Shown here piece after piece: positions 3,649-40,286 of a DNA stretch of 53,325 bases. The stretch covers positions 1 through 53,325 of the forward strand of contig CAXMOT010000099.1 in NCBI GenBank assembly GCA_964195105.1. Reading direction: 5' to 3'. The position numbers and the translations under genes were made by a program. Position 1 is the first letter of the stretch; each line of letters opens with the position of its first letter. This DNA comes from an uncultured Gemmatimonadales bacterium. Its GTDB lineage: Bacteria > Pseudomonadota > Gammaproteobacteria > Pseudomonadales > IMCC2047. Under the pieces are notes generated by a model, which saw only the letters and a program-made list of their open reading frames with translations, had not been told where the DNA came from and made no database searches.

Positions 3649-4140
3649 ATGAATAACGTACCCCCCAGCGTATGGCGCAATCCGACCCACTTCCTGGCGT
3701 TTGGTTTTGGTAGCGGCGCGGCACCCTTTGCGCCAGGCACCTTTGGCACCCTTGCGGCCATTCCCATCTACCTGTTGCTGCAGGACCTAAGCTGGTATAG
3801 CTATTTGCTGGTGGTCATTGTCGGGTTCGTCTGGGGCGTGTCCCTGTGTGGTCGCACCGCTGCCGATATCGGCGTACATGATCACTCCGGGATCGTTTGG
3901 GACGAATTCATTGGCTACCTGTTGACCATGTTTATGGCCCCGACGGGCTGGTTGTGGGTGGTGGTGGGCTTTTTGTTGTTTCGGGTGTTCGATATTTTAA
4001 AGCCCTGGCCGATTAATCGTCTCGATCGAGAGGTCCATGGTGGTCTGGGTATTATGCTGGACGATGTGCTGGCTGGCATCTTTGCCTGTGCGGGGTTGCA
4101 TGCGCTGGTATGGGCCGGACACAGGTTCGCACTGCTATAA
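3649..4140 (+). CDS. pgpA: Phosphatidylglycerophosphatase A
   Basis: 163-aa membrane protein with FGFGSG, PGTFGT and DILKPWP motifs. It occupies the thiL-pgpA position. Confidence 0.92.
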   Translation: MNNVPPSVWRNPTHFLAFGFGSGAAPFAPGTFGTLAAIPIYLLLQDLSWYSYLLVVIVGFVWGVSLCGRTAADIGVHDHSGIVWDEFIGYLLTMFMAPTGWLWVVVGFLLFRVFDILKPWPINRLDREVHGGLGIMLDDVLAGIFACAGLHALVWAGHRFALL

Positions 4141-4356
4141 TCCTGGAAACCTCAGTTGGATCACGAAAGTATGCACAACCTCTTGACGCACCTGGAAAAT
4201 TTGAAAAAGCTCCCATCACCAATAAGGTGGCTGAAAACCGCTCCTGCGTTTTCGGCATTTCCTACATCCCTACAGGTCACCATGAGTTTTCAAATTTCCC
4301 ATACACATCAATATGTTGCACATCTTATTCACGCCTAACTGAGGTTTCCAGGATAA
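4138..4356. mobile_element. MITE-like element, family A, long form (core 4141-4353, 213 bp) with TAA target duplication
   Basis: Perfect 16-bp terminal inverted repeats cctggaaacctcagtt (4142-4157) and aactgaggtttccagg (4337-4352). Direct TAA copies lie at 4138-4140 and 4354-4356. Three related copies occur elsewhere in the window. Confidence 0.8.
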
Positions 4357-7761: not shown

Positions 7762-7820
7762 TTATCCTGGAAACCTTAGTTGTGCAGACTTTCGTGATCC
7801 AATTGAGGATTCTAGGATTA
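7762..7820. mobile_element. MITE-like element, family A, short hairpin form (core 7765-7817, 53 bp) with TTA target duplication
   Basis: Arms cctggaaaccttagttg and caattgaggattctagg flank a 17-nt loop gtgcagactttcgtgat. That loop is the reverse complement of the subterminal sequence of the 4141 copy. Direct TTA copies lie at 7762-7764 and 7818-7820. Confidence 0.75.
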
Positions 7821-26971: not shown

Positions 26972-28783
26972 TCAGATGTCCGGCCATATATCTTCACCCA
27001 GGTCATCGTCATCCTGGATCATGGCAGTCATTTCACTTTCAAAGACAAAGCGGCTGAACCGTGAGGTCAGGGTTTCCCGACCGGCCAACAACCCCTGGCT
27101 GATTTCGCCGTACTGATTGACCATTACTTTTAATCCATCCCGAAACGGCAAATTTGGCGTTATCAGGTTGGGGTAAGGGTTATTGTGATCCAGTGAGGGC
27201 ATAATCAGGGCGCGAATGTAGTCTGACTTTCGTTTACCTCGCATCAAAACCTTGGCGCCGCAGGGGATTGCATTGGGCGCAACGATTTCCACTCCCATCA
27301 GGGTTTCTTCCGATGCCAATTGGTTTAGCCAGCGGACAACGCCGATACTCCAGGTATGCTGCACGCCCTCATTCACGCCGATAATTTCGCCGGTTTTAAT
27401 TTCTGCGGGGATATCGTTGAGCCATTTCACGCAATAGCCGAACGGGCTGGAATCCAGGATATGGGCCTTGTAAGTTTCATACTCGACTCCGGCCCCGTGT
27501 TTGGTAGCGGCCTCGGCTTCCGGTGCTTGCTCTGCCCTGTAGCCGACGCCCGATGTGTTCGAGGCCTGGCGCATTGCGAGGTCATTAGTTACATCAAAAC
27601 CGCCTGCCCAGCGATCCTGGACATCGTTGATCGATTTCACGTTGGCCGATTCAAACACTTCATTCGGGTCATCCTCGCCGGATTCTCCCTTATGCAACTG
27701 GGTCTCAAAATCAACCCCGCCCGCCACGAAGTAATGGGTAGCGCTGAAGCCGACACAAAGCTTGACCGGTTTGTCATTGGCAACACGGTTTGACTCGCGA
27801 TCGGCAATCGATCCCCAGGTCTTGACCAGGTAGCGCGCCAAATCTGTTGTAACCGTTTGCGGTACCGTAATGCCTTTGACATAGGCGCCATCGGTAGCGT
27901 CCGCCTGGCGTAAATACTGCTGCAGCAGTTGCAGGAGGTCGGTGAAGTTAATTCCCCGCAGCATGGCAGTTATTTTCTGGTCCACCAAATCGCGATAAAT
28001 CGGGGGTTTGTGGTTGCCGAGATCTACGACGAACTTTGTGTTATTGGTCGTCGGGCCAACACTGATATGTTGACACCAATATTCGCAGGCATTGAATAAC
28101 GTCTTAATATCTTGCTGCTGCATCTGGTTCGGCTTGCAGCAACCCAACATCAACACTTTCTTATACACATCTGCGATGGTCGAATTGGTCAGGAACTCTG
28201 TGGTTGTGTCTTGTACAGCAATATCCAGCAACTTGTTGGATTCGCCAATCAGGTAAAACTGGTGCAGTTCCTGCCAAATGGCATCCGGCACCTTGTTGTA
28301 AAGCTGGGAGAATCTCAGGACGTTTTGGTTCAGCGCGCTCATCGCCCGATGCACCGCTAGCGCAGCGGTCTTTTTGGTTTTCCTGGCAGCAAACAGGTTC
28401 TTGGTTTTGGAGTACTCGTTGATAGCAATCTTGTAGCCAATCGCCAGGTTATTATCCAGTGCCATTGCCAGTCGCGCTATCTTGCGGGCTTTGTTAGGCA
28501 GCAGTAATGGCTGGTTGAGGTAATACTTGCTCAGCGCGCCGCACACGCTCACGATGGGCTCCCTCAGGATTTCAAGCAGGCTGATGCGAGTGTCGAAATC
28601 ACAATTTAACTGATTGAGCTCAATAACCGCATGGTACAGCTGGCGCGACGATTCTCCGAGATTAACCATGGGCAGCTGGTTAATCCACTCGCTCATATGT
28701 TTCGGAATAGGTTCACAAAAGGATAGCGTTCCCAGCGTCCGGGTCGGGATTGCAAGTTGTTCTGCGGTTTTATCAAACGACAT
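26972..28783 (-). CDS. Conserved hypothetical protein, PA4958/FimW-like, with C-terminal PilZ-like beta-barrel
   Basis: 603 aa, immediately upstream of the fimX-like gene, as PA4958 is in P. aeruginosa. The C-terminal region has LDSSPFG (DxSxxG-like), but no clear RxxxR was seen. Confidence 0.5.
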   Translation of the reverse strand: MSFDKTAEQLAIPTRTLGTLSFCEPIPKHMSEWINQLPMVNLGESSRQLYHAVIELNQLNCDFDTRISLLEILREPIVSVCGALSKYYLNQPLLLPNKARKIARLAMALDNNLAIGYKIAINEYSKTKNLFAARKTKKTAALAVHRAMSALNQNVLRFSQLYNKVPDAIWQELHQFYLIGESNKLLDIAVQDTTTEFLTNSTIADVYKKVLMLGCCKPNQMQQQDIKTLFNACEYWCQHISVGPTTNNTKFVVDLGNHKPPIYRDLVDQKITAMLRGINFTDLLQLLQQYLRQADATDGAYVKGITVPQTVTTDLARYLVKTWGSIADRESNRVANDKPVKLCVGFSATHYFVAGGVDFETQLHKGESGEDDPNEVFESANVKSINDVQDRWAGGFDVTNDLAMRQASNTSGVGYRAEQAPEAEAATKHGAGVEYETYKAHILDSSPFGYCVKWLNDIPAEIKTGEIIGVNEGVQHTWSIGVVRWLNQLASEETLMGVEIVAPNAIPCGAKVLMRGKRKSDYIRALIMPSLDHNNPYPNLITPNLPFRDGLKVMVNQYGEISQGLLAGRETLTSRFSRFVFESEMTAMIQDDDDLGEDIWPDI

Positions 28784-28958
28784 TAACAGCGTCCATTAGA
28801 TCGTGCACCTCTCTAGTCGGGCGCGAAGACTCAATAATATGCTTTGGTAGCCTGTGCCAAAAAAGGCTGCAGGCTAGGGAAAACAAACCATAGTCCATTA
28901 AAAATATAGGTGACACAAGCGAATTTAGCCAGTCCCACTGTAAAATTTACTGGGCTGG

Positions 28959-29999
28959 TCAAAGCAGCGGTGCGATGATTGTTTTGGCTGGTTTTCCGGG
29001 TTCTTCAACCGCTAGCCTGGGTACGAGGTAACCGGGCAGCCGGGAGGCGACTTCACCCACTAGTCGCTGTGCTGCGGTTCGCTCCAGATCAAAGTGCGCA
29101 GCGCCATGCACTTTGTCCAGCAAATGCAGATAATAGGGCATTATCCCGAAGCCAAACAGCTTGTCACTCAATGCACACAATGTATCGACATTATCGTTCA
29201 CACCTTTAAGCAATACACTCTGGTTGAGCAGCGTAACGTTGGCCCGGCGCAGATCGGCCAGGCCGGGCTCAAGCGCCGGGTCCAGTTCATTCTGGTGGTT
29301 AATGTGTAGCACCATAACGCTTTTCAGGCGGGTTTCGCCCAGCAACCTGGCAAGCTCGGGCGTAATGCGTTGCGGAATGACGACCGGCGTTCGGGTATGC
29401 AGCCTGATTCGCTGGATGTGGGGGATATCGGCGATAGCGCCCAGCAGTTCAGCGAGTTTGTCGTCGCTCAGCAGCAGCGGGTCGCCGCCACTGAGAATGA
29501 TTTCGTTGATGCCGGGTCTGCTGCGAACGTAGTCCAGGGCCGCTAGCAGGTGGCTATGGTCAAGACGGTTTTCCTGGTACGGGAAGTGACGGCGAAAGCA
29601 ATAACGGCAGTTAATGGCGCAGGCGCCAGTGAGGATCAGTAGGACACGACTGCTGTACTTGTGGACCAGCCCGGGCAGTACTGCGGCATCGGATTCGTGT
29701 AATGGATCATCGCTATAGAATTCGCTACGCAGGTGTTCCCGGGTGGTGGGCAATACCTGGCGTAGCAGCGGGTCATTCGGGTTTCCGTATTCGATGCGCC
29801 TGGCAAAACCGCGCGGGACGCGCAGCGGGAAATCAAGGTCGGTGGTGTCGAGATCCGGAATGTCAGCGCTTTGCATGCCGGTGAATGCCAGCAATTCCGC
29901 TACCGAAGAAAGTGCGGAGCTTAATTCAGACTGCCAATTATTGGGCTGCACAGAGGGCACGGTTCGATGTATCATTACGCCGTTTGATTTGATCGCCAT
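28959..29999 (-). CDS. epmB: EF-P beta-lysylation protein EpmB (lysine 2,3-aminomutase-like radical SAM)
   Basis: CAINCRYCFRR radical-SAM cluster motif. 346 aa, divergent from efp. Confidence 0.92.
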   Translation of the reverse strand: MAIKSNGVMIHRTVPSVQPNNWQSELSSALSSVAELLAFTGMQSADIPDLDTTDLDFPLRVPRGFARRIEYGNPNDPLLRQVLPTTREHLRSEFYSDDPLHESDAAVLPGLVHKYSSRVLLILTGACAINCRYCFRRHFPYQENRLDHSHLLAALDYVRSRPGINEIILSGGDPLLLSDDKLAELLGAIADIPHIQRIRLHTRTPVVIPQRITPELARLLGETRLKSVMVLHINHQNELDPALEPGLADLRRANVTLLNQSVLLKGVNDNVDTLCALSDKLFGFGIMPYYLHLLDKVHGAAHFDLERTAAQRLVGEVASRLPGYLVPRLAVEEPGKPAKTIIAPLL

Positions 30000-30022
30000 A
30001 AGGTTTATATAAGAGAGGAAAG

Positions 30023-30595
30023 ATGGCCAACTATTCTACCAATGAATTTCGTTCGGGTCTTAAGGTTCTGCTGGAGGGTGACCCCTGTAGTATCCTGGAA
30101 AATGAATTTGTTAAGCCCGGCAAAGGCCAGGCCTTCAGCCGGGTTAAGTTTCGTAACCTGAAAACCGGCAGGGTATGGGAGCGGACCTTTAAGTCCGGGG
30201 AGTCGCTAGAGGGCGCCGATGTCATGGAACTGACTATGGAGTATCTCTATAACGACGGCGAATTTTGGCATTTCATGAGGACTGACGGCTCTTACGAGCA
30301 GTTGCCGGCCGATAAGAATGCAGTGTCGGCAGCGCTGGACTGGCTCAAGGAGCAGGAAGAGTTTACGGTCACTCTCTGGAATGGTGCCGTGCTGTCGGTT
30401 GAGGCCCCTAATTTTGTCGAACTGGAAGTGGTCGAAACCGATCCCGGGTTGAAGGGCGACACGGCTCAGGGCGGAAGCAAGCCTGCGACCTTGACGACCG
30501 GCGCAGTCGTGCGGGTCCCATTGTTCGTGAATACCGGTGATGTCCTGCGCATCGATACCCGCACCGGCGAATACCAGAACCGGTCGAGCAAATAG
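30023..30595 (+). CDS. efp: Elongation factor P
   Basis: 190 aa. The [16 protein letters not shown] loop has the modifiable Lys34. Confidence 0.96.
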
Positions 30596-30642
30596 CTTCG
30601 GCGGCCAGTCGATCCCGTCGCGCTTGCTGTGGTTAATCTCCA

Positions 30643-31593
30643 ATGCTGAGTAACGGCGACTGGCAGCCAACTGCCTCAGCTGAATCGCTCAGGCTGCGGG
30701 CTGGAATGTACCAGCGCATCAGGGAATTCTTTGCACAGCGCAAGGTGCTGGAGGTGGATACCCCGCTGCTGGGCTCGGCGACCGCAAATGAACCTCATTT
30801 GGCGAGTTACCAGGTTGCCGGGCAATCACTATTCCTGCAAACATCTCCCGAATTTGCTATGAAGCGCTTGCTCGCCAGTGGCAGCGGCCCGATCTACCAG
30901 ATATGCAAAGCGTTTCGCCATGGCGAAAGTGGTGTGCGGCATAATCCCGAATTTACGCTGTTGGAGTGGTACCAGCCTGGCTTCGAGCTTACCCGCTTGA
31001 TGGACGAGGTGGTGGCGGTTACAGCGATGTTCCTGGGTGATATGGCGGTCGAGCAACTCTCCTACCGGCAAGCTTTTCTGCAGTTTCTTGATATTGATCC
31101 GCACCGCGCCGATATCCACCAGCTCAGGGCGCTGGCAATCCGCTGCGCCAATTATGATGGCGCAGCGGATGATACTGACACCTTGCTGGAACTGCTTATG
31201 AGTCATGCCATCGAGCCCCACCTGGGGCGCGGCGGACTCACCTTTATCTACGACTACCCGGCTAGCCAGGCGGCACTTGCCCGGGTTGAGGCGGATGCCG
31301 AAGGTGTCCGGGTGGCGCGACGTTTTGAGCTTTATCGCGATGGTATGGAGTTGGCAAACGGCTACCAGGAACTCACCGACCCGGTTGAACAGCAACGCCG
31401 CTTTACCGACAACCGGGCGCGGCGTAGCGCTGCGGGGCTGGTGGATTACCCTGGAGATGGTCGGCTGCTGGCGGCGCTGGAGGAATTGCCGGAATGTTGT
31501 GGCGTCGCATTGGGTCTGGATCGTCTGCTGATGTTGCAGGTCGGTGCCGCCTCGATCGATGAGGTGCTGGCGTTCCCGATTGCCAGGGCTTAG
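30643..31593 (+). CDS. epmA: EF-P--(R)-beta-lysine ligase EpmA (GenX/PoxA)
   Basis: Class II aaRS-like core (FRHGESGVRHNPEFTLLEWY and GVALGLDRLLML). 316 aa, downstream of efp. Confidence 0.92.
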   Translation: MLSNGDWQPTASAESLRLRAGMYQRIREFFAQRKVLEVDTPLLGSATANEPHLASYQVAGQSLFLQTSPEFAMKRLLASGSGPIYQICKAFRHGESGVRHNPEFTLLEWYQPGFELTRLMDEVVAVTAMFLGDMAVEQLSYRQAFLQFLDIDPHRADIHQLRALAIRCANYDGAADDTDTLLELLMSHAIEPHLGRGGLTFIYDYPASQAALARVEADAEGVRVARRFELYRDGMELANGYQELTDPVEQQRRFTDNRARRSAAGLVDYPGDGRLLAALEELPECCGVALGLDRLLMLQVGAASIDEVLAFPIARA

Positions 31594-31634
31594 GAGTCTG
31601 TCGGACTTAGGCTGAATCTACTCGGCTTTGGCAT

Positions 31635-31662
31635 CCTCGACAACTGCTCCTCGACAACTGCT
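31635..31662. repeat. Tandem direct repeat, 14 bp x2 (cctcgacaactgct)
   Basis: Two identical adjacent units lie at 31635-31648 and 31649-31662, inside the family-B element. Confidence 0.95.
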
Positions 31663-31665
31663 CCT

Positions 31666-31766
31666 GCGTTGTTCTACTACCTTGCATCCATGCACATATG
31701 CGTTGTTCTACTACCGTGCGTCCATGCACATATGCGTCGCTCTACCTCCTGCATCCATGCAGTCGT
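31666..31766. repeat. Tandem direct repeat, about 34 bp x3
   Basis: Units at 31666-31699 and 31700-31733 are 32/34 identical (gcgttgttctactaccKtgcRtccatgcacatat). A third, more diverged 33-bp unit lies at 31734-31766. Confidence 0.9.
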
Positions 31767-31958
31767 GCGGAAAAGCCGCTCACGTAATAGAGGCAGCTCA
31801 TGATTTGCGCTCTTCCTCGTTAAATGGGCGCACCATTCGCCTCGAAAGAGCCCAAAATCTGCCTCAAATCGGACTTTCCCTCGCGACGAACACCGAAACC
31901 CGACAGGCTCCTTAAGAGCCTGTAAAACTATCAGCATGGCTTAGGCGGCCTGAAAAAT

Positions 31959-31983
31959 ACCCGCAAAAATGACGGGTTTTTTT
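31959..31983 (+). terminator. Weak rho-independent terminator candidate downstream of epmA and the element
   Basis: acccg-caaaaatga-cgggt stem followed by a T7 run. Confidence 0.45.
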
Positions 31984-32027
31984 ACAGTTTGCTGATGCAG
32001 GTTTTGTAACCTGTTGATTTATATGGG

Positions 32028-32043
32028 TGGCATGGTTATTGCT
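32028..32043 (+). promoter_or_regulatory. Sigma-54 (RpoN) -24/-12 promoter candidate
   Basis: TGGCAT-ggtta-TTGCT matches the TGGCAC-N5-TTGCW consensus with exact GG-N10-GC spacing. It lies about 105 nt upstream of the ORF at 32147. Confidence 0.55.
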
Positions 32044-32146
32044 TTATCGTTTTGGATGGATTTACAATAGAATCAGGAGCAACAAGGGCGATCAGCGTAA
32101 AAGTGAAATATTTCACTATAATTATAAAAGAGAAATGCACTAAAAA

Positions 32147-32392
32147 ATGACTGCACTGGCAAGATCTGGGGAAGCTAACCAGCCACCTTCAAGATCGAAC
32201 AGGATATTTAACAGGGACAGTAGTTGGTATTTTAGTACCCGTGAGGGTAAAAACGCGGGACCTTATGATAGTCGCGGTGAAGCCGAACAGGCGGTCGTTG
32301 ACTTCGTTGATTTCCTGCGCGTCGCTGATTGGGATACCCGAATCAAATATCTGGCCGCAATTACGGCCACGACACATACCAGGCTTACCTGA
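32147..32392 (+). CDS. Small conserved hypothetical protein (DUF6316-like)
   Basis: 81 aa. The central SWYFSTREGKNAGPYDSRGEAEQAV resembles, from memory, a small conserved gammaproteobacterial family. The SD is weak. Confidence 0.45.
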   Translation: MTALARSGEANQPPSRSNRIFNRDSSWYFSTREGKNAGPYDSRGEAEQAVVDFVDFLRVADWDTRIKYLAAITATTHTRLT

Positions 32393-32400
32393 CTAATCGG

Positions 32401-32697
32401 TTAAGGCTCGCCTTTAACCTGCGCGACGCTGCTTTGCGAACATTGCTGGCAAATGCATGACTGACGGTTTTTTGTGCGGCCGAGCTCAAGCGCCGTGTCG
32501 GGGAGCTTTACGCTGCTACACCAGCAGTTAAAAGGCTTCCCGTTGTCACTCGTTGCTACACCACACTGATTGGGTTGCTCGCAGAGCGGGCAGAGTTGGG
32601 CCGCTGTGGCCGATCTCCGGGATAGGTTATCTGTACCGGTCATCGTATCCGGCTGCGCTATGGCATCCTGAGTGGCGACTGTTTGTTTGGCGGCCAT
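32401..32697 (-). CDS. Cysteine-rich CWC-family small protein
   Basis: The Cys pattern CPLC..x..NQC....CWC...C.C..C is typical of the Cys_rich_CWC family. The start codon is uncertain. Confidence 0.55.
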   Translation of the reverse strand: MAAKQTVATQDAIAQPDTMTGTDNLSRRSATAAQLCPLCEQPNQCGVATSDNGKPFNCWCSSVKLPDTALELGRTKNRQSCICQQCSQSSVAQVKGEP

Positions 32698-32702
32698 GCT
32701 GG

Positions 32703-33551
32703 TTAACCGGTTGCGTCAGCGCGCTCTTCGGCGCTGGCGAGTAACTGTCCCATTGTTACCGTATCGTCGGCTTGCAGTTGCTCGTGCCAGGCGATGCTGT
32801 CCCGACCAAACAAAAGGATTACGGTAGAACCCAATTTAAATCGACCCATCTCATCGCCCTTGTTCAGTTGAATGGGGGTGTGGTGATCCAGCTCCCTGAG
32901 TTGCCGCTTCGGAGGCGCCACCAGGCCTGCCCAGACGGTCTCGATGCTGGCTACGATCATTGCTCCGACCAGGATCATCGCCATCGGTCCGTGCGCGGTC
33001 TCAAACAGGCACACCAGACGCTCGTTTCGGGCAAATAAACCGGGCACGTGGCTGGTGGTCAGGGGGCTGACCGAAAATAGTCGACCGGGCACATACACGC
33101 TGTGCTTGAGTACCCCGTCGACCGGCATATGAATGCGGTGATAGTCCTTGGGCGACAGGTAAATCGTGGTGAAGCTCCCGCCATCAAATTGCTCCGCCAG
33201 CGTTTGCGAGCCACCGATGAGTTCGCGGGTGCTAAAGCTATGCCCCTTGGCCTGGAAAATGCGGCCATCTGTGATGTTTCCCAATTGGCTGATTGCGCCA
33301 TCCACCGGGCAAGCGACGCTCCCCGGGTCCTGTACAAAGCTGCGGGCATCGGCTTTGAGCGCGCGGGTAAAAAAGTCATTAAAGTGCGCGTAGGAGGTGG
33401 GATCCGGGTTCTCGGCCTCGTCCATGTTGACGCCGTAGCTGTTGATGAAATAGCCGATCAGGTGATTCTTGAACCACGGCCAGCGACATTCTGCGACCAG
33501 ACCCGCCAGGCGCGATAAACTGTGATGGGGCAGGACATATTGTCCCAGCAT
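32703..33551 (-). CDS. psd: Phosphatidylserine decarboxylase proenzyme
   Basis: 282 aa with the self-cleavage FKLGSTV (LGST) motif. Confidence 0.94.
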   Translation of the reverse strand: MLGQYVLPHHSLSRLAGLVAECRWPWFKNHLIGYFINSYGVNMDEAENPDPTSYAHFNDFFTRALKADARSFVQDPGSVACPVDGAISQLGNITDGRIFQAKGHSFSTRELIGGSQTLAEQFDGGSFTTIYLSPKDYHRIHMPVDGVLKHSVYVPGRLFSVSPLTTSHVPGLFARNERLVCLFETAHGPMAMILVGAMIVASIETVWAGLVAPPKRQLRELDHHTPIQLNKGDEMGRFKLGSTVILLFGRDSIAWHEQLQADDTVTMGQLLASAEERADATG

Positions 33552-33584
33552 AAACAGGAAGTTTTTGATAATAGTCTCGCTCTG

Positions 33585-34415
33585 TCAGGTGGATGTGGCG
33601 ATGGGTGTGTCTGGGTCGTTGCCCCATTCACCCCAGGAGCCGTCGTAGGCGCGGATATTCTGGAACCCCAGCAGCTTGCCCAGCAGGTAGGTGAATCCTG
33701 AGCGGTGGTGGGTCTGGCAGTGGGTTACGATCTCTTTATCGCTGGTAATACCCAGCTCAGCGAGTTCCTGGCGAATATCCTCCAGGTCGCGAATACGTAA
33801 CTGGCGGTCCTGCGCCATGCCGCGGGTCCATTCGTAATTCACGGCGCCGGGAATATGCCCTGCGCGTGCCGCGTTCTTTTTTACGCCGCTGTATTCGCCC
33901 GGTGAGCGCGCGTCCCATATTACCAGTTCCGGGGAATCCAGGTTATCCAGCAGGTATTGCTTGGTTACCCGGGGTTGTTCGTCGATGTCCAACCTTACCG
34001 GTTTGGAGAACGGCATGCGGGGCGTGGTTTCCGTTTCCAGCCCGGCATCTACCCAGGCATGAATGCCGCCGTTCAGGTAGGAGTATTGTTTATGGCCGAT
34101 GATATCCAGGGTCCAGATCATACGCCCTGCCCAGCCGCCGCCTTCATCGTCGTAGACCACCACGTGGTTGTCTTCAGTGATGCCCAGGTAATTGATGAGT
34201 CTGTCCAACTGTTGCGGTTCCGGTAACATGCCGACGCCCGGCGGTTTGCCGGATATCAGTGCGCTGCTGGGGACATAGACCGCGCCCGGCACATGGCCGA
34301 CCAGGTAGGTTTGCTCCTTGCACGCCAAGTCGATGACTGTCAGCTGCGGGTCGTCCAGCACCGCGACCAGTTGCTCAGGCTCGATCAATAAGGGTAAGTT
34401 CTTAGCTGTTGTCAT
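33585..34415 (-). CDS. Thiosulfate sulfurtransferase (tandem rhodanese domains, RhdA-type)
   Basis: 276 aa. The active-site loop HCQTHHRSG is of the Azotobacter/Pseudomonas RhdA type. It is adjacent to psd, as in Pseudomonas. Confidence 0.88.
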   Translation of the reverse strand: MTTAKNLPLLIEPEQLVAVLDDPQLTVIDLACKEQTYLVGHVPGAVYVPSSALISGKPPGVGMLPEPQQLDRLINYLGITEDNHVVVYDDEGGGWAGRMIWTLDIIGHKQYSYLNGGIHAWVDAGLETETTPRMPFSKPVRLDIDEQPRVTKQYLLDNLDSPELVIWDARSPGEYSGVKKNAARAGHIPGAVNYEWTRGMAQDRQLRIRDLEDIRQELAELGITSDKEIVTHCQTHHRSGFTYLLGKLLGFQNIRAYDGSWGEWGNDPDTPIATST

Positions 34416-34510
34416 GGGCTGTTCGGATCGGGATTTAAAATCAACTCGGTGAGTATGGAATTCTATCGCAATGGTGATAACCTGTCAGTTCCCCACTTGA
34501 TTTTGATTTT

Positions 34511-35665
34511 ATGCGCCTCGCCAAACGTATCCGCCAGATTCAACCCTTTCATGTGATGGAACTTGCCCGTCGTGCCGGTGAACTCCAGGCCGAGGGGCGG
34601 GATATTGTGCGGATGGATTTGGGTGAGCCGGATTTCGCGACACCGCAGCCGATCGTCGATGCTGGCATCGCCGCGCTGGAGCAGGGCCGGACTCGATATA
34701 CCCCTGCCACCGGGCTGTCAGTGCTGCGCGAGGCGATAGCCGCATTCTATGGCAACCGGTACGGGATTGAGGTGGCGCCGGAGCAGGTGATTGTGACACC
34801 CGGCTCCTCTGGCGCACTGCAACTAGCACTGGCATTGTTGGTCAATCCGGGAGAGGGCGTACTGATGGCTGCCCCCGGCTATCCCTGCAATCCGAATATT
34901 TTGCGCCTGGTCGGCGGTGAGCCGCAGTTTGTGGAAGTCACTGCGAATACGCATTATCAATTGGATGCGCAATTGCTGGAACAGCATTGGCAAGCCAATA
35001 GCGCGGCGGTGCTGGTGGCGTCCCCCTCCAATCCCACCGGTACCCTGATGCCAGTCGCGGTACTGGAGGAGATTCTGGGGGTTATTGACGCGCGCGAGGG
35101 TACCCTGATCTCAGATGAGATATACCACGGCCTGACTTTCGGTTGTGAGGCGGCGACGGCGCTGGCGTTTTCAGATCAAGCCTTTGTGGTGAACAGTTTC
35201 TCCAAGTATTTCGGCATGACCGGATGGCGCCTGGGATGGTTGGTCGCCCCCGCAGCGATGGCCTCCAGCCTGGAGAAGATGGCGCAGAATCTGTTTATTG
35301 CAGCGTCGACCATAGCCCAGCATGCGGCGATGGCGGCCTTTGATTCCGCGACGCTGGAGATTCTTGAGCAACGCCGGGAGGTATTCCGGCAACGGCGGGA
35401 TTTCCTGTGCCAGGCATTGCCAGAATTGGGTTTCACCATCGACGTCAAACCCGAAGGAGCATTTTACATCTATGCGGGCTGTGAAAAATTCACCGACGAT
35501 TCGATGCGGTTCTGTCATGACCTGCTCGAGAAGCACGGTGTTTCGATTACCCCCGGCATTGATTTCGGCTCGAATTATTCGGCCACACACGTGCGCTTTT
35601 CCTACACCACCAGTATGGAGCGCCTGGAAGAGGGGGTGAATCGACTGGCCAGGGCGTTGCCATGA
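34511..35665 (+). CDS. PLP-dependent aminotransferase, class I/II
   Basis: 384 aa with the NPTG motif and the PLP-lysine motif SFSKYFGMTGWRLGW. Confidence 0.9.
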   Translation: MRLAKRIRQIQPFHVMELARRAGELQAEGRDIVRMDLGEPDFATPQPIVDAGIAALEQGRTRYTPATGLSVLREAIAAFYGNRYGIEVAPEQVIVTPGSSGALQLALALLVNPGEGVLMAAPGYPCNPNILRLVGGEPQFVEVTANTHYQLDAQLLEQHWQANSAAVLVASPSNPTGTLMPVAVLEEILGVIDAREGTLISDEIYHGLTFGCEAATALAFSDQAFVVNSFSKYFGMTGWRLGWLVAPAAMASSLEKMAQNLFIAASTIAQHAAMAAFDSATLEILEQRREVFRQRRDFLCQALPELGFTIDVKPEGAFYIYAGCEKFTDDSMRFCHDLLEKHGVSITPGIDFGSNYSATHVRFSYTTSMERLEEGVNRLARALP

Positions 35666-35675
35666 GTGCGGTGAA

Positions 35676-36383
35676 ATGAAGTTTCCGAATTCACTTATCG
35701 AAGCCACGCTGATGCGTCGTTATAAGCGCTTCCTGGCGGATGTCGAGCTGCCCGGGGGTGAGAAAATCACCGTCCATTGTCCCAATACCGGCAGTATGCT
35801 CGGGTGCGCGGAGCCGGGCTCCCGGGTCTGGCTGGCCCATTCCGATAACCCGAAACGAAAGTATGCCTACACCTGGCAATTAGTGGAAACCGAACCCGGC
35901 CAGCTCACCTGTATTTACTCGGCCCAGGCCAACACCCTGGTGAAGGAAGCCCTGGGCGAGCATCGATTGGCTGGACTGGATAATTACCCGCAGGTCGACA
36001 GCGAAGTGCGTTACGGCGTCGAAAACAGCCGCATCGACTTCCTGCTGTCGCGAGACGAGCAGCGCTGTTATGTCGAGGTCAAGTCGGTGACGCTGCATGT
36101 GGGAGATGGCCTGGGATTATTTCCGGACGCGGTGAGTAGCCGGGGTGCGCGGCACCTACGGGAATTGCAGGCGATGGTTGGCAAGGGCCAACGAGCGGTG
36201 TTGCTTTATGTGGTACAAAACACCGCGATCAACCGGGTCGCGCCAGCCTGGGAAATTGACCCGGCCTATGCGCAGGCGCTGCACGATGCCGTGGGCGCCG
36301 GAGTTGAAGTGATCTGCTATGGCTGTGACATATCTGCGGCGGAAATCAGGCTTGGCGCGCAGTTGTCCTTTAGCCCCGAGTAG
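35676..36383 (+). CDS. sfsA: Sugar fermentation stimulation protein homolog SfsA
   Basis: 235 aa. The N-terminus L..RYKRFLADV....G....HCPNTGSM is typical of SfsA. Confidence 0.9.
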   Translation: MKFPNSLIEATLMRRYKRFLADVELPGGEKITVHCPNTGSMLGCAEPGSRVWLAHSDNPKRKYAYTWQLVETEPGQLTCIYSAQANTLVKEALGEHRLAGLDNYPQVDSEVRYGVENSRIDFLLSRDEQRCYVEVKSVTLHVGDGLGLFPDAVSSRGARHLRELQAMVGKGQRAVLLYVVQNTAINRVAPAWEIDPAYAQALHDAVGAGVEVICYGCDISAAEIRLGAQLSFSPE

Positions 36384-36750
36384 TATCCGGTTTCGTAGTG
36401 AGTTTGCGAGTCGTCGCAACCGGTACGAAGTCCTGGTCCAATAGTACCTGTTCATCTACCAGTTCGAAGGCCACCCGGGTGAGGGGCTGGCCGCGGCAAG
36501 GGCCAGCAATACAGGCGCCGGTCTCCACCTCGAACAGCGCGCCGTGCATGGCACATTGCAGGTAGGTTTCGTCATAGCTAAAAAACTTGTCTTGCTGGAA
36601 ATCCAGGTTTACGCCGAAGTGCGGGCAGCGATTCTCATAGACGAATATCCGGGCATTGCGGCGTACCACCACGACCTGGCCACCCCGATAGGGAAACCCT
36701 TTGGCTTGTCCTTCAGCAATAGCGGACAGTTGGCAAAGCGGTGTGGTCAA
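36370..36750 (-). CDS. Rieske [2Fe-2S] domain protein
   Basis: CPHFG and CAMHG (CxH...CxxH) ligand motifs. 126 aa. The TTG start at 36750 is built from the MITE terminal base plus the target duplication. Confidence 0.85.
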   Translation of the reverse strand: MTTPLCQLSAIAEGQAKGFPYRGGQVVVVRRNARIFVYENRCPHFGVNLDFQQDKFFSYDETYLQCAMHGALFEVETGACIAGPCRGQPLTRVAFELVDEQVLLDQDFVPVATTRKLTTKPDTTRG

Positions 36751-36993
36751 CCTGGAACCCTCAGTTGGACAGGGAATTTACGGGAAATCTCGGCGTGCCA
36801 GGCAAGGCATCGCTCGCAGGTAATGGCCATTTCCTGGGCAAGAGCGATAACACGGCCTGCTGGGCTGAGAATTTCTGTAAAACCCTGTAGCAGACATCAG
36901 TTCACCCAATGAGTGACTGGAATAATTTAACTATTAAGGACTATATCAATAAGTTACACAAATACGAGCGGTCAACTGCGGAATCCAGGTTCA
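36747..36993. mobile_element. MITE-like element, family A, long form (core 36750-36990, 241 bp) with TCA target duplication
   Basis: Terminal inverted repeats acctggaaccctcagttg (36750-36767) and caactgcggaatccaggt (36973-36990) match at 15/18. Direct TCA copies lie at 36747-36749 and 36991-36993. The right subterminal region is homologous to the 4141 copy (atcaataWgttRcaca). Confidence 0.7.
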
Positions 36994-38292
36994 ACCTGTC
37001 GCCTCTTGTTTGGCGTTATTCTCAGCGTATTCATCCAGATCGGACAGGTCGTTAAATTGCTCCTTGTCCATCATGCCTTCGCTGTTGGCAATCACGGCGG
37101 TCACCATGGAATCGCCTGCTACATTCACGGCCGTACGCATCATGTCCAGCAGTCGGTCCACGCCGATAACGATCGCAATGCCCTCTACGGGCAACCCGAC
37201 TTGCTGCAATACCATGGCCAGGGTGATCAGGCCAACACCGGGCACACCGGCTGTTCCGATGGACGCGAGGGTTGCAGTGGTAATGACCATCAGGTAGCCG
37301 CTGAGGCCGATATCGACGTTAAATGCCTGGGCGATAAAGACGGTAGCAACCCCCTGCATGATCGCGGTGCCGTCCATATTGATGGTGGCGCCGAGGGGCA
37401 GGGTAAAGGCTGCGACGGAATTATCGATACCGACCCGTTTTTCCGCAACATTCAGGGTGACGGGCAGGGTTGCGCTACTGGAGGACGTGCTAAAGGCAAA
37501 CAGCAAGGCAGGGCGAATGTTTTTGAATAAGGTGAGCGGATTGAGCTTGGTGAACCCGTAGAAGAGCAGGGAGTAGACCCCCAGGCCATGCAGCAATAGC
37601 GCCAGGACGACGCAGAAGAAGTAAGCAGCCAGGTCCATGATCGCACCGTATCCCAGGTTGGCAAACAGTTTGGCTAGCATGCAGAACACGCCGTAGGGTG
37701 CCAGGTGCATCAGGATAACGACCATCTTCATGATCACTTCATTGAATTCGTTAAAGATCTCCTGGACCTTGCGGCCCTTGTCGCCGCAACGGGATACCGC
37801 AACGCCCATCAGCAGTGAAAAGACAATGATCTGCAGCATGTTGCCCTCGGCCATCGCCTGGATTGGATTGGAGGGGAAAATGTTGATCAGCACTTCCTTG
37901 AGTGACGGGGACTCTGTGGCAACAAAGCTGACTTCGTCGGCCATATTCATTCCCACACCCGGCTGGATCAGCGCCGCTACTGTCAGGGCCAGGGTGATCG
38001 CAACGGCGGTGGTGAAAACGTAAAGCAACAGGGTTTTGAGCGCCATATTCCCCATCCGTGCATTGTCACCCAGCGCCGAGCAACCACATACCAGGGAGAC
38101 GAATACCAGAGGCACAACCAGCAGTTTAAGCGATGCAACAAAGATGGTCCCAACCACATCGAAGGCGCCGTCCACCAGCGCCCATCGCACCCATTCGCCC
38201 AATCCCTCGGTGCTGCCGATGATCAGGTTCAGCACGATGCCCAGGCCCAGGCCTGCTACCATGCCGATTAATATGCGTGTGGTGAGATTCAT
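36991..38292 (-). CDS. Dicarboxylate/amino acid:cation symporter (DAACS family)
   Basis: 433-aa polytopic protein with family motifs ATINMDGTA and SIGTAGVPG. Confidence 0.9.
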   Translation of the reverse strand: MNLTTRILIGMVAGLGLGIVLNLIIGSTEGLGEWVRWALVDGAFDVVGTIFVASLKLLVVPLVFVSLVCGCSALGDNARMGNMALKTLLLYVFTTAVAITLALTVAALIQPGVGMNMADEVSFVATESPSLKEVLINIFPSNPIQAMAEGNMLQIIVFSLLMGVAVSRCGDKGRKVQEIFNEFNEVIMKMVVILMHLAPYGVFCMLAKLFANLGYGAIMDLAAYFFCVVLALLLHGLGVYSLLFYGFTKLNPLTLFKNIRPALLFAFSTSSSSATLPVTLNVAEKRVGIDNSVAAFTLPLGATINMDGTAIMQGVATVFIAQAFNVDIGLSGYLMVITTATLASIGTAGVPGVGLITLAMVLQQVGLPVEGIAIVIGVDRLLDMMRTAVNVAGDSMVTAVIANSEGMMDKEQFNDLSDLDEYAENNAKQEATG

Positions 38293-38407
38293 AGTTTCAT
38301 ACCCCTATTTAGTTCCAACGACCTGATAATTAAGGATTCAGTGAGCTGCGTCTTGTCTAGAATCATCTGGCAAACGCTGCATCTTAAATGATCAGGTGGT
38401 TGGAGTG

Positions 38408-39427
38408 CTAGTCCAATGATGGAGCGACATGCAGGCCGCCATCACTGGCGTGTGCATTCAGGCCCCTTGGCATCTTATAAGGTGAGTCGGCGCCGAGAAA
38501 ACGCTGGAATACTTCGTCATAATTGCCCACCTGGCTGATAACCTTATCATGCCAGCGTGGATCGAGGCCAATGCTGATGCCCTTGATGCCCGCCATATCC
38601 CACAGCCCCTTAATGTCCCGGGGGATGCTCTCCAGCGACTCGGCGCTGATGCCTAATTGCTCGGCACTCAGCATCAGCGCAAGCGTCCAGCGGATGATCT
38701 TGTACCACTCCACATCGTCGCTGCGCACCAGCGGCCCGGTGGCGCGTATGGCAATTTTATCGGGCAGCATACGGGTGTTGAGTTCGGCCGGTAACAGGGT
38801 CGCCAGGTAATGTAGCTGGGCCAGGTCGGCCGTTATCGCGTCGCAGCGCTGCTGTTCAAATGCCTTGGCTGCGGCTTCAATCGAGTTCATGGATACCAGC
38901 TTCAGTTCCAGGCCTGCGGCCGCCATAAACAGTTCCAGGTTTTGGTTGTGGTCCTGGTCATCATCGATGCATACCGATTTGTCCTGTAAATCCGTTGCCG
39001 TGTAGGCGTCCGCTTCATCACGGACCAATAGCGTCTGGCTGGCGAAATACAGTGGTTCAACAAACATCAGTCCCTGTGTGGTATCGGTCCCAAGTGCCAT
39101 CCCGGAGTGGCGCACGACGATATCCAGGTCGCCGGATTGCAGGGCTGCATGGCCTTTCTCAAGCGCCAATGGCACGAAGCGAACCCGGGTGGCATCGCCG
39201 AGGGTTGCGGCCGCGACCGCATGACAGAAGCTGACTTCAAGCCCTTGCCAGTTGCCAGCGTCTTTTACCGAGAATCCGGGTAAGCTGCTGTGCACGCCGC
39301 AGTTGAGAAAGCGCTTTTCCTTGATCCTGTCCAGTGTTGACGCGGCGCTCAGGTTGCTCGCATGCGCCATCGCGATGATAAGCAATAGGGTGAAAAGCGT
39401 TTGTAGGGGTGCGGCGGAGACCTTCAA
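38408..39427 (-). CDS. Amino-acid ABC-type periplasmic substrate-binding protein (AapJ/BztA-like), orphan
   Basis: 339 aa with a signal peptide ending AMAHA. The NCGV....PGF......GNW.G.....FC.AVAAA..GD motif resembles general L-amino-acid binding proteins. No adjacent permease or ATPase genes. TTG start. Confidence 0.82.
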   Translation of the reverse strand: MKVSAAPLQTLFTLLLIIAMAHASNLSAASTLDRIKEKRFLNCGVHSSLPGFSVKDAGNWQGLEVSFCHAVAAATLGDATRVRFVPLALEKGHAALQSGDLDIVVRHSGMALGTDTTQGLMFVEPLYFASQTLLVRDEADAYTATDLQDKSVCIDDDQDHNQNLELFMAAAGLELKLVSMNSIEAAAKAFEQQRCDAITADLAQLHYLATLLPAELNTRMLPDKIAIRATGPLVRSDDVEWYKIIRWTLALMLSAEQLGISAESLESIPRDIKGLWDMAGIKGISIGLDPRWHDKVISQVGNYDEVFQRFLGADSPYKMPRGLNAHASDGGLHVAPSLD

Positions 39428-39482
39428 CCTAGAAACCTCGGTTGTGCATACTTTCGTGATCCAACTGAGGTTTCTAGGTTCA
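39424..39482. mobile_element. MITE-like element, family A, short hairpin form (core 39427-39479, 53 bp) with TCA target duplication
   Basis: Arms cctagaaacctcggttg and caactgaggtttctagg (16/17 plus one G-T) surround the loop tgcatactttcgtgatc. Direct TCA copies lie at 39424-39426 and 39480-39482. Confidence 0.8.
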
Positions 39483-39599
39483 TAGTTCAGTGGCTACAAA
39501 TCTGGGCGGATGGGGAGAGTAGAATGCCGTTACTCTATGCGGGCGCGTTGCCAAGTGCAAGTGGCCGCGGCGTTCAACTGCGTGGAAGCCGGGCAGCGG

Positions 39600-40286
39600 T
39601 CAGTCGCGCAGGCTGATGCAGGGCCAGCCTTGCTCCAGCGCGTGTGCCTGAAGCATTTGATCGCCATCAACCACGACGGGATTCGCTACTGCTTCGAGTA
39701 ACGGCAGGTCATTGATCGAATCGCTATAGGCATAGCTGCCGGTCAAGGTGACCTGGTGGTTGTCGAGCCACTGTGACAGTCGCGTAATCTTGCCTTCGCG
39801 AAATGAGGGCGTACCCGCCACGCGGCCTGTATATGCACCATCGACTATTTCAGGTTCGCTGGCAATGAATTCATCGATGCCGAGCCGTTTGCAGATGGGC
39901 GCCGCTACAAAGCTGTTGGTGGAGGTGATGACCAGGCATTGATCACCCCGTGCCTGGTGTTCCAGCACCAGTTCGTGGGCCTTGGGCAGCAGCATATGCT
40001 GGATTTTCTGCGTCATGAACTGTGTATGCATTTCGTTTAGCGCTGCCATTGAGTGCTCTGCCAGTGGTGCCAGCGCAAAAGCCAGGTACTCCTGGATATC
40101 CAATTCCCCTTGCTGGTACTGCTGGTAAAAGTGGGCGTTTCTCTGTTGATAGAACTCGCCGTCGACGACTCCCTCCTCGACCAGGAATTCCCCCCAGGCA
40201 TAATCGCTGTCTCCCGCGATCAGGGTATTGTCCAAATCAAAAATGCTTAATGCCATATTATTCCTCAATGGTTTCTGGTGTAGCAC
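39600..40286 (-). CDS. HAD-IB family hydrolase (SerB-like subfamily)
   Basis: IFDLDNTLI (DxDxT) motif. 228 aa, divergent from rppH-ptsP as in Pseudomonas. Confidence 0.82.
   Translation of the reverse strand: MLHQKPLRNNMALSIFDLDNTLIAGDSDYAWGEFLVEEGVVDGEFYQQRNAHFYQQYQQGELDIQEYLAFALAPLAEHSMAALNEMHTQFMTQKIQHMLLPKAHELVLEHQARGDQCLVITSTNSFVAAPICKRLGIDEFIASEPEIVDGAYTGRVAGTPSFREGKITRLSQWLDNHQVTLTGSYAYSDSINDLPLLEAVANPVVVDGDQMLQAHALEQGWPCISLRD

Follow-up and report, generated by a model that had tools for sequence, protein, structure and literature searches.

Gene-boundary repeats and the locus under study

The Correia elements of Neisseria (CREE or NEMIS) are transposable elements of the miniature inverted-repeat type (MITEs) of about 100–155 bp with long terminal repeats, which are co-transcribed with their neighbours and change expression through hairpins in the mRNA. 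Here we describe a MITE in the start codon of a gene for an amino-acid-type periplasmic substrate-binding protein (SBP), found in a stretch of 53,325 nt from an uncultured bacterium (contig CAXMOT010000099.1, GTDB lineage Gammaproteobacteria, Pseudomonadales). This whole stretch is called the window, and positions refer to it unless a relative is named. The Correia elements differ from the element in the window in their TA duplication and their unrelated repeats, and they are confined to Neisseria. Other repeats are known to carry translation signals: BOX repeats encode the stop codon of 36 coding sequences and some starts, and the REP2 repeats of Neisseria and the IR repeats of Borrelia carry a promoter, a ribosome-binding site (RBS) and an ATG (PMC3049150, PMC3184786). 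Pneumococcal BOX, RUP and SPRITE elements, REP2 and the Borrelia repeats are all, like the present element, short gene-boundary repeats that give a stop, an RBS or a start to a neighbouring open reading frame (ORF), but they have no sequence relationship to it. Repeats supplying such signals are already known, and the locus is a clean new instance, not a new kind of system. What is particular here is a composite start to which the element gives one base and the target two, the survival of the old start as the head of an upstream ORF (uORF) that closes on the new start, and two independent junction starts in one operon.

For the translation of such a start, the closest parallels are coupled overlaps. 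Genes VII and IX of phage f1 are coupled and have a −4 nt overlap that is preceded by a long hairpin, and both unfolding and reinitiation are established as coupling mechanisms (PMC12548453). As at the SBP start, the short upstream ORF in phage f1 VII/IX and in engineered bicistronic designs contains the downstream Shine–Dalgarno (SD) sequence and ends on the downstream start; a hairpin silences that start unless the upstream ORF is translated, a hairpin that is predicted at the locus described here. The present case differs from them in its creation in one step by transposon insertion, in its UUG start, and in that the coupling is one that we infer.

An insertion in the ATG start of the SBP gene

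The SBP gene (PF00497) occupies 38408–39427 on the minus strand, as do all features of its start given below. Its ORF is intact, its N-terminus (MKVSAAPLQTLFTLLLIIAMAHA) is signal-peptide-like, and an NCBI record exists for the 339-aa product of this exact sequence, read from TTG. The minus-strand sequence across the insertion site reads ...ctgaactATGAACCTAGAAACCTCAGTTGGATCACGAAAGTATGCACAACCGAGGTTTCTAGGTTGAAGGTCTCC. A 53-bp mini-MITE core (39427–39479) lies between two copies of the target trinucleotide, TGA on the coding strand and TCA on the plus strand: a gene-distal copy at 39480–39482, which is the TGA of an ancestral ATGA, and a gene-proximal copy at 39424–39426. The present start, TTG at 39425–39427, takes its T from the end of the element and its TG from the duplicated target, and is the first canonical start downstream of an in-frame TAG at 39496–39494. 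An SD-like GAGG (39436–39439), supplied by the terminal repeat, lies 8 nt upstream of it. The displaced ATG (39483–39481) opens a uORF of 19 codons (39424–39483; MNLETSVGSRKYAQPRFLG*), which spans the whole hairpin described below and ends on the gene-proximal TGA, so that its stop overlaps the SBP start as TTGA. Upstream of the ancestral ATG, a conserved leader of 116 nt (39484–39599) extends to the histidinol-phosphatase gene.

The terminal inverted repeats of the element form a hairpin at 39426–39480, with arms at 39426–39444 and 39462–39480. The 19-nt arms are 95% complementary and include a perfect terminal repeat (14/14). Folding prediction for the 60-nt stretch as RNA gave −28 kcal/mol (z = −6.4; none of 200 shuffled sequences was equally stable), and GAGG and TTG are fully paired in both the minimum-energy and the centroid structure, where they form part of the 3′ arm of the stem. 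The hairpin begins at +4 of the uORF. It has no U tract, and is therefore not an intrinsic terminator; a scan around the site found neither a sigma-70 consensus promoter nor a terminator, and no SD motif was found near the ancestral ATG in the leader of the window or in the orthologues. Both the internal motif GGATCACGAAAGTNTGCACAAC of the core and its terminal repeat recur at 59 loci in other genomes. The core corresponds to the left 39 nt plus the right 14 nt of the family consensus and, judged by this match, is an internally deleted family copy.

The initial annotation, made from the letters of the window, had described this arrangement, and its coordinates and sequence statements at the site were all re-derived from those letters and found correct. 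Among them, the GAGG from the element arm 8 nt before TTG was located at 39439–39436, translation confirmed that the displaced ATG opens a 19-codon uORF closing in a TTGA overlap, and the N-terminus MKVSAAPLQ is preserved when read from TTG.

A protein search with the 339-aa product returned close matches in just two clusters, which are 95% and 89% identical, all other matches being at most 42% identical. The orthologues lie on two metagenomic contigs (L001 and L002) and on a partial third one (L062, in the same 90% cluster), and the start region is uninterrupted in each of them (L001: ...ctgaaccATGAAGACC; L002: ...ctaaactATGAAGGTCTCCGCC; L062: ...ctgaactATGAAGGCCTCC). The empty sites in all three orthologues (89–96% identical) read ...ACT/ACC-ATGAAG(G/A)..., and the alignment contains one clean gap of 56 bp, made up of the 53-bp MITE and the 3-bp TGA duplication, between highly conserved flanks. 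When the 56 bp were deleted in silico, the result (...aactATGAAGGTCTCCGCC) equalled L002 letter for letter and differed from L001 and L062 by 1–3 substitutions. The displaced ATG is the start codon in all three orthologues, where it is the first start past an in-frame stop and where the RNA is unstructured (z about 0). Relatives with 96.8%, 95.6% and 90.9% nucleotide identity lack the insertion, which is confined to the window lineage, and this gives the polarity of the event. Comparison with these sequences confirmed that a 53-bp mobile element landed inside the ATG start of the SBP gene. The initial annotation had proposed a MITE inserted into the ATG start and had predicted the empty start as ATGAAGGTCTCCGCC; the prediction is matched exactly in L002, an ATG stands at the predicted position in 3/3 orthologues, and the event is a transposon-type insertion into ATGA seen against three independent empty sites.

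Further alleles of this start were sought with the conserved SBP leader among metagenome contigs of the Joint Genome Institute (JGI), filled or empty, with 0 matches. A second metagenome-assembled genome (MAG), GCA_964196395.1 (L064), is 99.83% identical to the window over 26991–38669. In this assembly and in two Logan assemblies (L065–L067) the contigs break at 38669 and near 40200, and the SBP start is uncovered. About 1.5 kb around the MITE-bearing start are missing from all other assemblies, for which allele heterogeneity in the population is a possible cause.

We propose that a TNA-targeting, non-autonomous MITE transposed into the TGA of the ATGA at the SBP start and duplicated this TGA. 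The ancestral ATG, whose own upstream context is kept, now lies 56 nt upstream and out of frame, and the composite TTG preserves the N-terminus. Pairing of the repeats in the mRNA would bury GAGG and TTG, so that free 30S subunits would start there poorly. Ribosomes starting at the old ATG would translate the 19-codon uORF and melt the hairpin; after termination on UUGA, with the SD sequence within reach of the terminating ribosome, either the same ribosome would restart at UUG or a new one would bind the freed GAGG/UUG. Expression of the SBP would then continue, tied to the earlier upstream initiation signal and probably at an altered level; since the hairpin also abuts the start of the uORF, this level is probably below that of the ancestor. 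The insertion with its polarity, the composite TTG, the uORF, the predicted hairpin and the family are established here, and to the inferred remainder, continued expression of the SBP through uORF coupling, we give about an even chance of being right. It is supported by the UUGA overlap, by a predicted hairpin that holds both the SD sequence and UUG wholly within the uORF, by the intact SBP ORF and open start regions in the orthologues, and by a native precedent in the same operon, where a distant relative (L070) has a TTGA stop/start overlap with an SD sequence 7–8 nt upstream.

An older junction start in the operon and the rival explanations

The gene order in the operon is SBP, a GltP-like symporter and a small Rieske-protein gene, and a second family copy lies at the junction of the latter two. 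This copy of 241 bp (36750–36990, plus strand) sits in the TGA of the native TTGA symporter/Rieske overlap, between target copies at 36747–36749 and 36991–36993. The Rieske gene (36370–36750, minus strand) starts from TTG at 36748–36750, again composed of the terminal T of the element and the TG of the target, and a repeat-borne GAGG at 36759–36762 stands 8 nt upstream of it, giving the same GAGG-N8-TTG as at the SBP gene. In the distant relative the site is empty (L070, 2250–2270) and reads GGTTGACCACACC, in which TTGA is shared by the stop of the symporter gene and the start of the Rieske gene, with AGGAGG 7 nt upstream, and the Rieske protein starts MTTPLC from the TTG. Insertion of the 241 bp left the stop of the symporter gene in place at the left junction; at the right junction the sequence is now ...ctGAGGgttccaggTTGACCACACC. 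In a 95% relative (L069, 85–335), as in the window, the site is occupied. The two elements are 96.6% identical, which indicates that the insertion predates the split of those lineages. L062, which has the empty SBP site, and L069, which has the filled Rieske site, come from the same sample and are both about 95% identical to the window; since one insertion is absent and the other present at a similar distance, the SBP insertion is the younger of the two.

In the Rieske gene the two carriers differ by 17 synonymous and 9 non-synonymous changes, a ratio of non-synonymous to synonymous rates (dN/dS) of 0.15, which points to a gene that starts at a MITE junction and has been kept by selection. To judge from this conservation, the Rieske case makes a working start at such a junction credible. 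The 241-nt RNA is predicted to fold into a rod in which the repeats pair and bury GAGG/UUG (−95 kcal/mol, z = −4.3), and the displaced TTG at the left junction opens a frame of 17 codons across the 5′ arm of the element.

Several observations weigh against continued expression of the SBP gene through coupling. No uORF ends on the Rieske start, so that the precedent is one of a working junction start and not of termination–reinitiation specifically. At the SBP gene, a hairpin that begins at +4 should also hinder initiation at the old ATG, itself without an SD sequence, and coupling would then deliver only what this weakened start provides. The dN/dS of the SBP gene against the orthologues is 0.21–0.37; on the window branch synonymous changes number 5 and non-synonymous ones 6 (7 of each on that of L001), a pattern neither clearly constrained nor clearly neutral and too few to decide. 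Finally, the insertion is limited to the window lineage and may be too young for decay to show.

The origin of the T in TTG was examined through the target duplications of the family. Complete copies with matching flanks number 28, and all of them have a TNA duplication (20 TAA, 3 TGA, 3 TCA and 2 TTA). The right TNA is followed by the base with which the element begins in 28/28 copies, and the left TNA is preceded by the base with which it ends in 24/28, so that the flank pattern resembles a 5-nt WTNAW duplication, with identical 5-mers on both sides in these 24. Copies with A..T ends sit in T-TNA-A and those with T..A ends in A-TAA-T; in five copies the left and right TNA differ at N only; carry-over of donor flanks is a possible cause of the flank correlation. 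Two non-palindromic targets have a known empty site, ATGAA at the SBP start and TTGAC at the symporter/Rieske junction. They fit a duplication of 3 or 4 nt and not one of 5 nt, and both yield the observed junction without a further mutation only when the element carries the terminal A...T along, which makes the T of TTG element-borne. TTG combines the last T of the element with TG from the target copy, as first proposed from the window alone; this composition fits both sites mutation-free.

If the family instead duplicates 5 bp (WTNAW), the insertion would originally have duplicated ATGAA and left an intact ATG beside the element, and TTG would be the product of a later A-to-T mutation. The identity of the 5-mers and the invariant base after the right TNA speak for this, as does the resemblance of the element ends, CCTAGA and CCTAAA, to those of ISEcp1 (IS1380 family), which makes 5-bp duplications. 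However, each of the two non-palindromic cases would need a mutation of its own, each yielding the canonical terminal base, and the 4 mismatched copies as well as the uncounted 241-bp copy all retain the canonical base beside the element; we consider this explanation very unlikely. Still less probable, to the point of being hardly credible, is that the 56 bp are a mis-assembly of a repeat in a MAG. The window is indeed a MAG contig, and the 99.83% identical second assembly breaks inside the gene and leaves the site uncovered. Against this stand the exact hallmarks of transposition, namely a full mini-element, a duplicated TNA and single-copy flanking sequence that stays in register with three orthologues, and assemblers break at repeats rather than making precise duplications.

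More serious, though on balance we doubt it, is the possibility that the insertion is a recent knock-down or null allele, in which the hairpin blocks both the old ATG and the new TTG/GAGG in an ORF that has not yet decayed. This would agree with an insertion found only in the window lineage and empty in three relatives, with a stem of −28 kcal/mol in place of an unstructured ancestral start whose ATG has no SD sequence, with the 5 synonymous and 6 non-synonymous changes of the window branch, which are indistinguishable from relaxed constraint, and with the near-identity of the mini-MITE to part of the 213-bp copy in the window, which suggests youth. It is countered by the Rieske gene, where a buried-start junction is compatible with purifying selection, and by the uORF, whose frame is open and ends exactly on the start in an arrangement that copies the native TTGA coupling signal of the operon. 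Alternatively, the SBP gene may be expressed by ordinary initiation at TTG through GAGG, independently of the uORF, if the hairpin opens by breathing or is lost, as through an RNase III-type cut in the long stem of the kind known from other MITE hairpins; the uORF would then be an irrelevant by-product. The spacing of 8 nt is near-optimal for GAGG, and the Rieske gene is conserved even though no ORF ends on its start. The SD sequence and the start are, however, fully paired in both predicted structures, and a 19-bp stem with a mismatch is marginal for RNase III, which leaves direct initiation rather improbable.

The locus offers an unusually clean natural experiment: one and the same start can be compared in its filled and its empty form, and the operon holds a second insertion of this family that is older. 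If the SBP gene is indeed expressed through coupling, a mobile element can enter a start codon, where a gene is most sensitive, or a stop/start overlap without polar damage: it would bring an RBS, make up a start with the help of the duplicated target and leave the old start as the beginning of a leader ORF that opens the hairpin. This would help to explain why TNA-targeting MITEs gather on codon boundaries, and would be a natural counterpart of engineered bicistronic leaders.

Distribution of the MITE family and context of the operon

In the window, 7 occurrences of the terminal repeat were counted where chance would give 0.05, and they belong to four elements. In addition to the two in the operon, a copy of 213 bp (4141–4353, plus strand) is flanked by TAA duplications at 4138–4140 and 4354–4356, the left one being the stop codon of pgpA (3649–4140). 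The mini-MITE at the SBP start is nearly identical to the corresponding part of this copy. A second mini-MITE, also of 53 bp (7765–7817, minus strand), lies between TTA duplications at 7762–7764 and 7818–7820 in the ispA–dxs spacer. It is placed 27 nt past the ispA stop and about 38 nt ahead of the dxs ATG, and would form a strong hairpin within the transcript of this essential isoprenoid operon. Three of the four window copies stand exactly on codon boundaries (the pgpA TAA stop, the symporter TGA/Rieske TTG junction and the SBP ATGA).

In a collection of species-representative genomes, the internal motif GGATCACGAAAGTNTGCACAAC was found at 59 loci (L003–L061). Most of these are in marine Nitrospirales MAGs with many copies per genome, many are contig ends of one unclassified MAG, and single copies were found in a Pseudomonadales MAG (L043, the closest to that of the window) and in one MAG each of the Deltaproteobacteria and the Desulfuromonadales. 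A typical element of the family has 164–165 bp, with long imperfect terminal repeats and without coding capacity (no long ORF). The 213-bp copy of the window has an internal segment of 49 nt in addition to what is present in the 164-bp copy of the Pseudomonadales MAG. Of the 28 complete copies, four coincide with the stop of an ORF no shorter than 80 codons, and that of the window is alone in lying on a start codon with a long frame; at the most similar foreign copy, that of the Pseudomonadales MAG, no gene starts at the junction.

To judge by these features (short, non-coding, with inverted repeats, target duplications and dispersed copies) the family is a MITE family, and apparently an undescribed one. 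Literature searches turned up no account of a family of this kind, be it in Nitrospira or elsewhere, and when the whole window was scanned against Rfam at gathering thresholds nothing matched, so that it is no RNA or repeat family described there. The search for the window-type subfamily in JGI metagenome contigs gave 0 matches, and that of a plasmid collection with the 213-bp copy gave none either. In a limited search among the 59 loci, no autonomous partner or transposase with the same ends was found, the long-looking cases being diverged, truncated or short MITEs. The occurrence of related copies in Nitrospirales, Gammaproteobacteria and Deltaproteobacteria suggests the spread of one mobile-element family across phyla, and a family shared in this way would be a marker of cross-phylum exchange of mobile DNA.

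Relationships to known insertion sequences were considered through the element ends and targets. Duplications of 3 bp (TNA/TWA) are typical of the IS1031 group of the IS5 family and of eukaryotic PIF/Harbinger elements. The TNA duplication is common to the IS5/IS1031 group and the present family, but the present elements lack the ends typical of the IS5 family (GA/GG...), and a transposase was not found. As in ISEcp1, the ends start with CC, and CCTAGA and CCTAAA are the first six bases of its left and right inverted repeats (IRL, CCTAGATTCTACGT; IRR, CCTAAATTCCACGT); the likeness is limited to these 6 nt, and both use AT-rich targets of 4–5 nt. In contrast to ISEcp1 with its 5-bp duplications, no transposase partner with these ends was found, and the two empty sites fit 3–4 nt. 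On such short matches, a relationship to IS1380 is a lead only.

The CCTC in the terminal repeat, which reads GAGG outward, is found only in the gammaproteobacterial subfamily, the Nitrospirales copies carrying CAGC or CGGC. It is conceivable, although we hold it tentatively and think it somewhat unlikely, that in the gammaproteobacterial branch the end of the element acts as a portable translation-start cassette, with a repeat that reads outward as GAGG-N8-T and that, on a TGA target, would always give GAGG-N8-UUGA. Pairing of the repeats would shut this start unless ribosomes enter the other arm from a displaced start or an upstream gene, and the element could land in stops, ATGA starts and TTGA/ATGA overlaps while preserving frames and translational coupling. 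Such a cassette would account for the exact placement of three of the four window copies on starts or stops and for the presence of two MITE-junction starts among the genes of one operon.

The gene order at 36370–39427 is conserved in the distant relative (L070, 3–2626), with the PF00497 SBP gene followed by a GltP-like secondary symporter of the DAACS family and the Rieske gene. The pairing is unusual in that a binding protein stands with a secondary transporter, and no permease or ATPase genes of an ATP-binding cassette (ABC) system are adjacent. In the SBP leader, a sequence spotted by eye at 39538–39553 (minus strand), TGGCAA-N5-CCGCA, is conserved in all three orthologues; it has the GG and GC spacing of sigma-54 promoters (TGGCAC-N5-TTGCA), which would fit nitrogen-regulated uptake of amino acids. 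The spacer between the SBP and symporter genes measures 15 nt in L001 (1261–1275) and in L070, 63 nt in L002 (1578–1640) and 115 nt in the window (38293–38407). That of L002 holds a hairpin-forming insert of 48 nt; in the window, this insert is split by a further piece of 54 nt (about 38341–38394), which has TGA/TGA flanks and is single-copy in the window. In this way, small insertions have struck every junction of this small operon.

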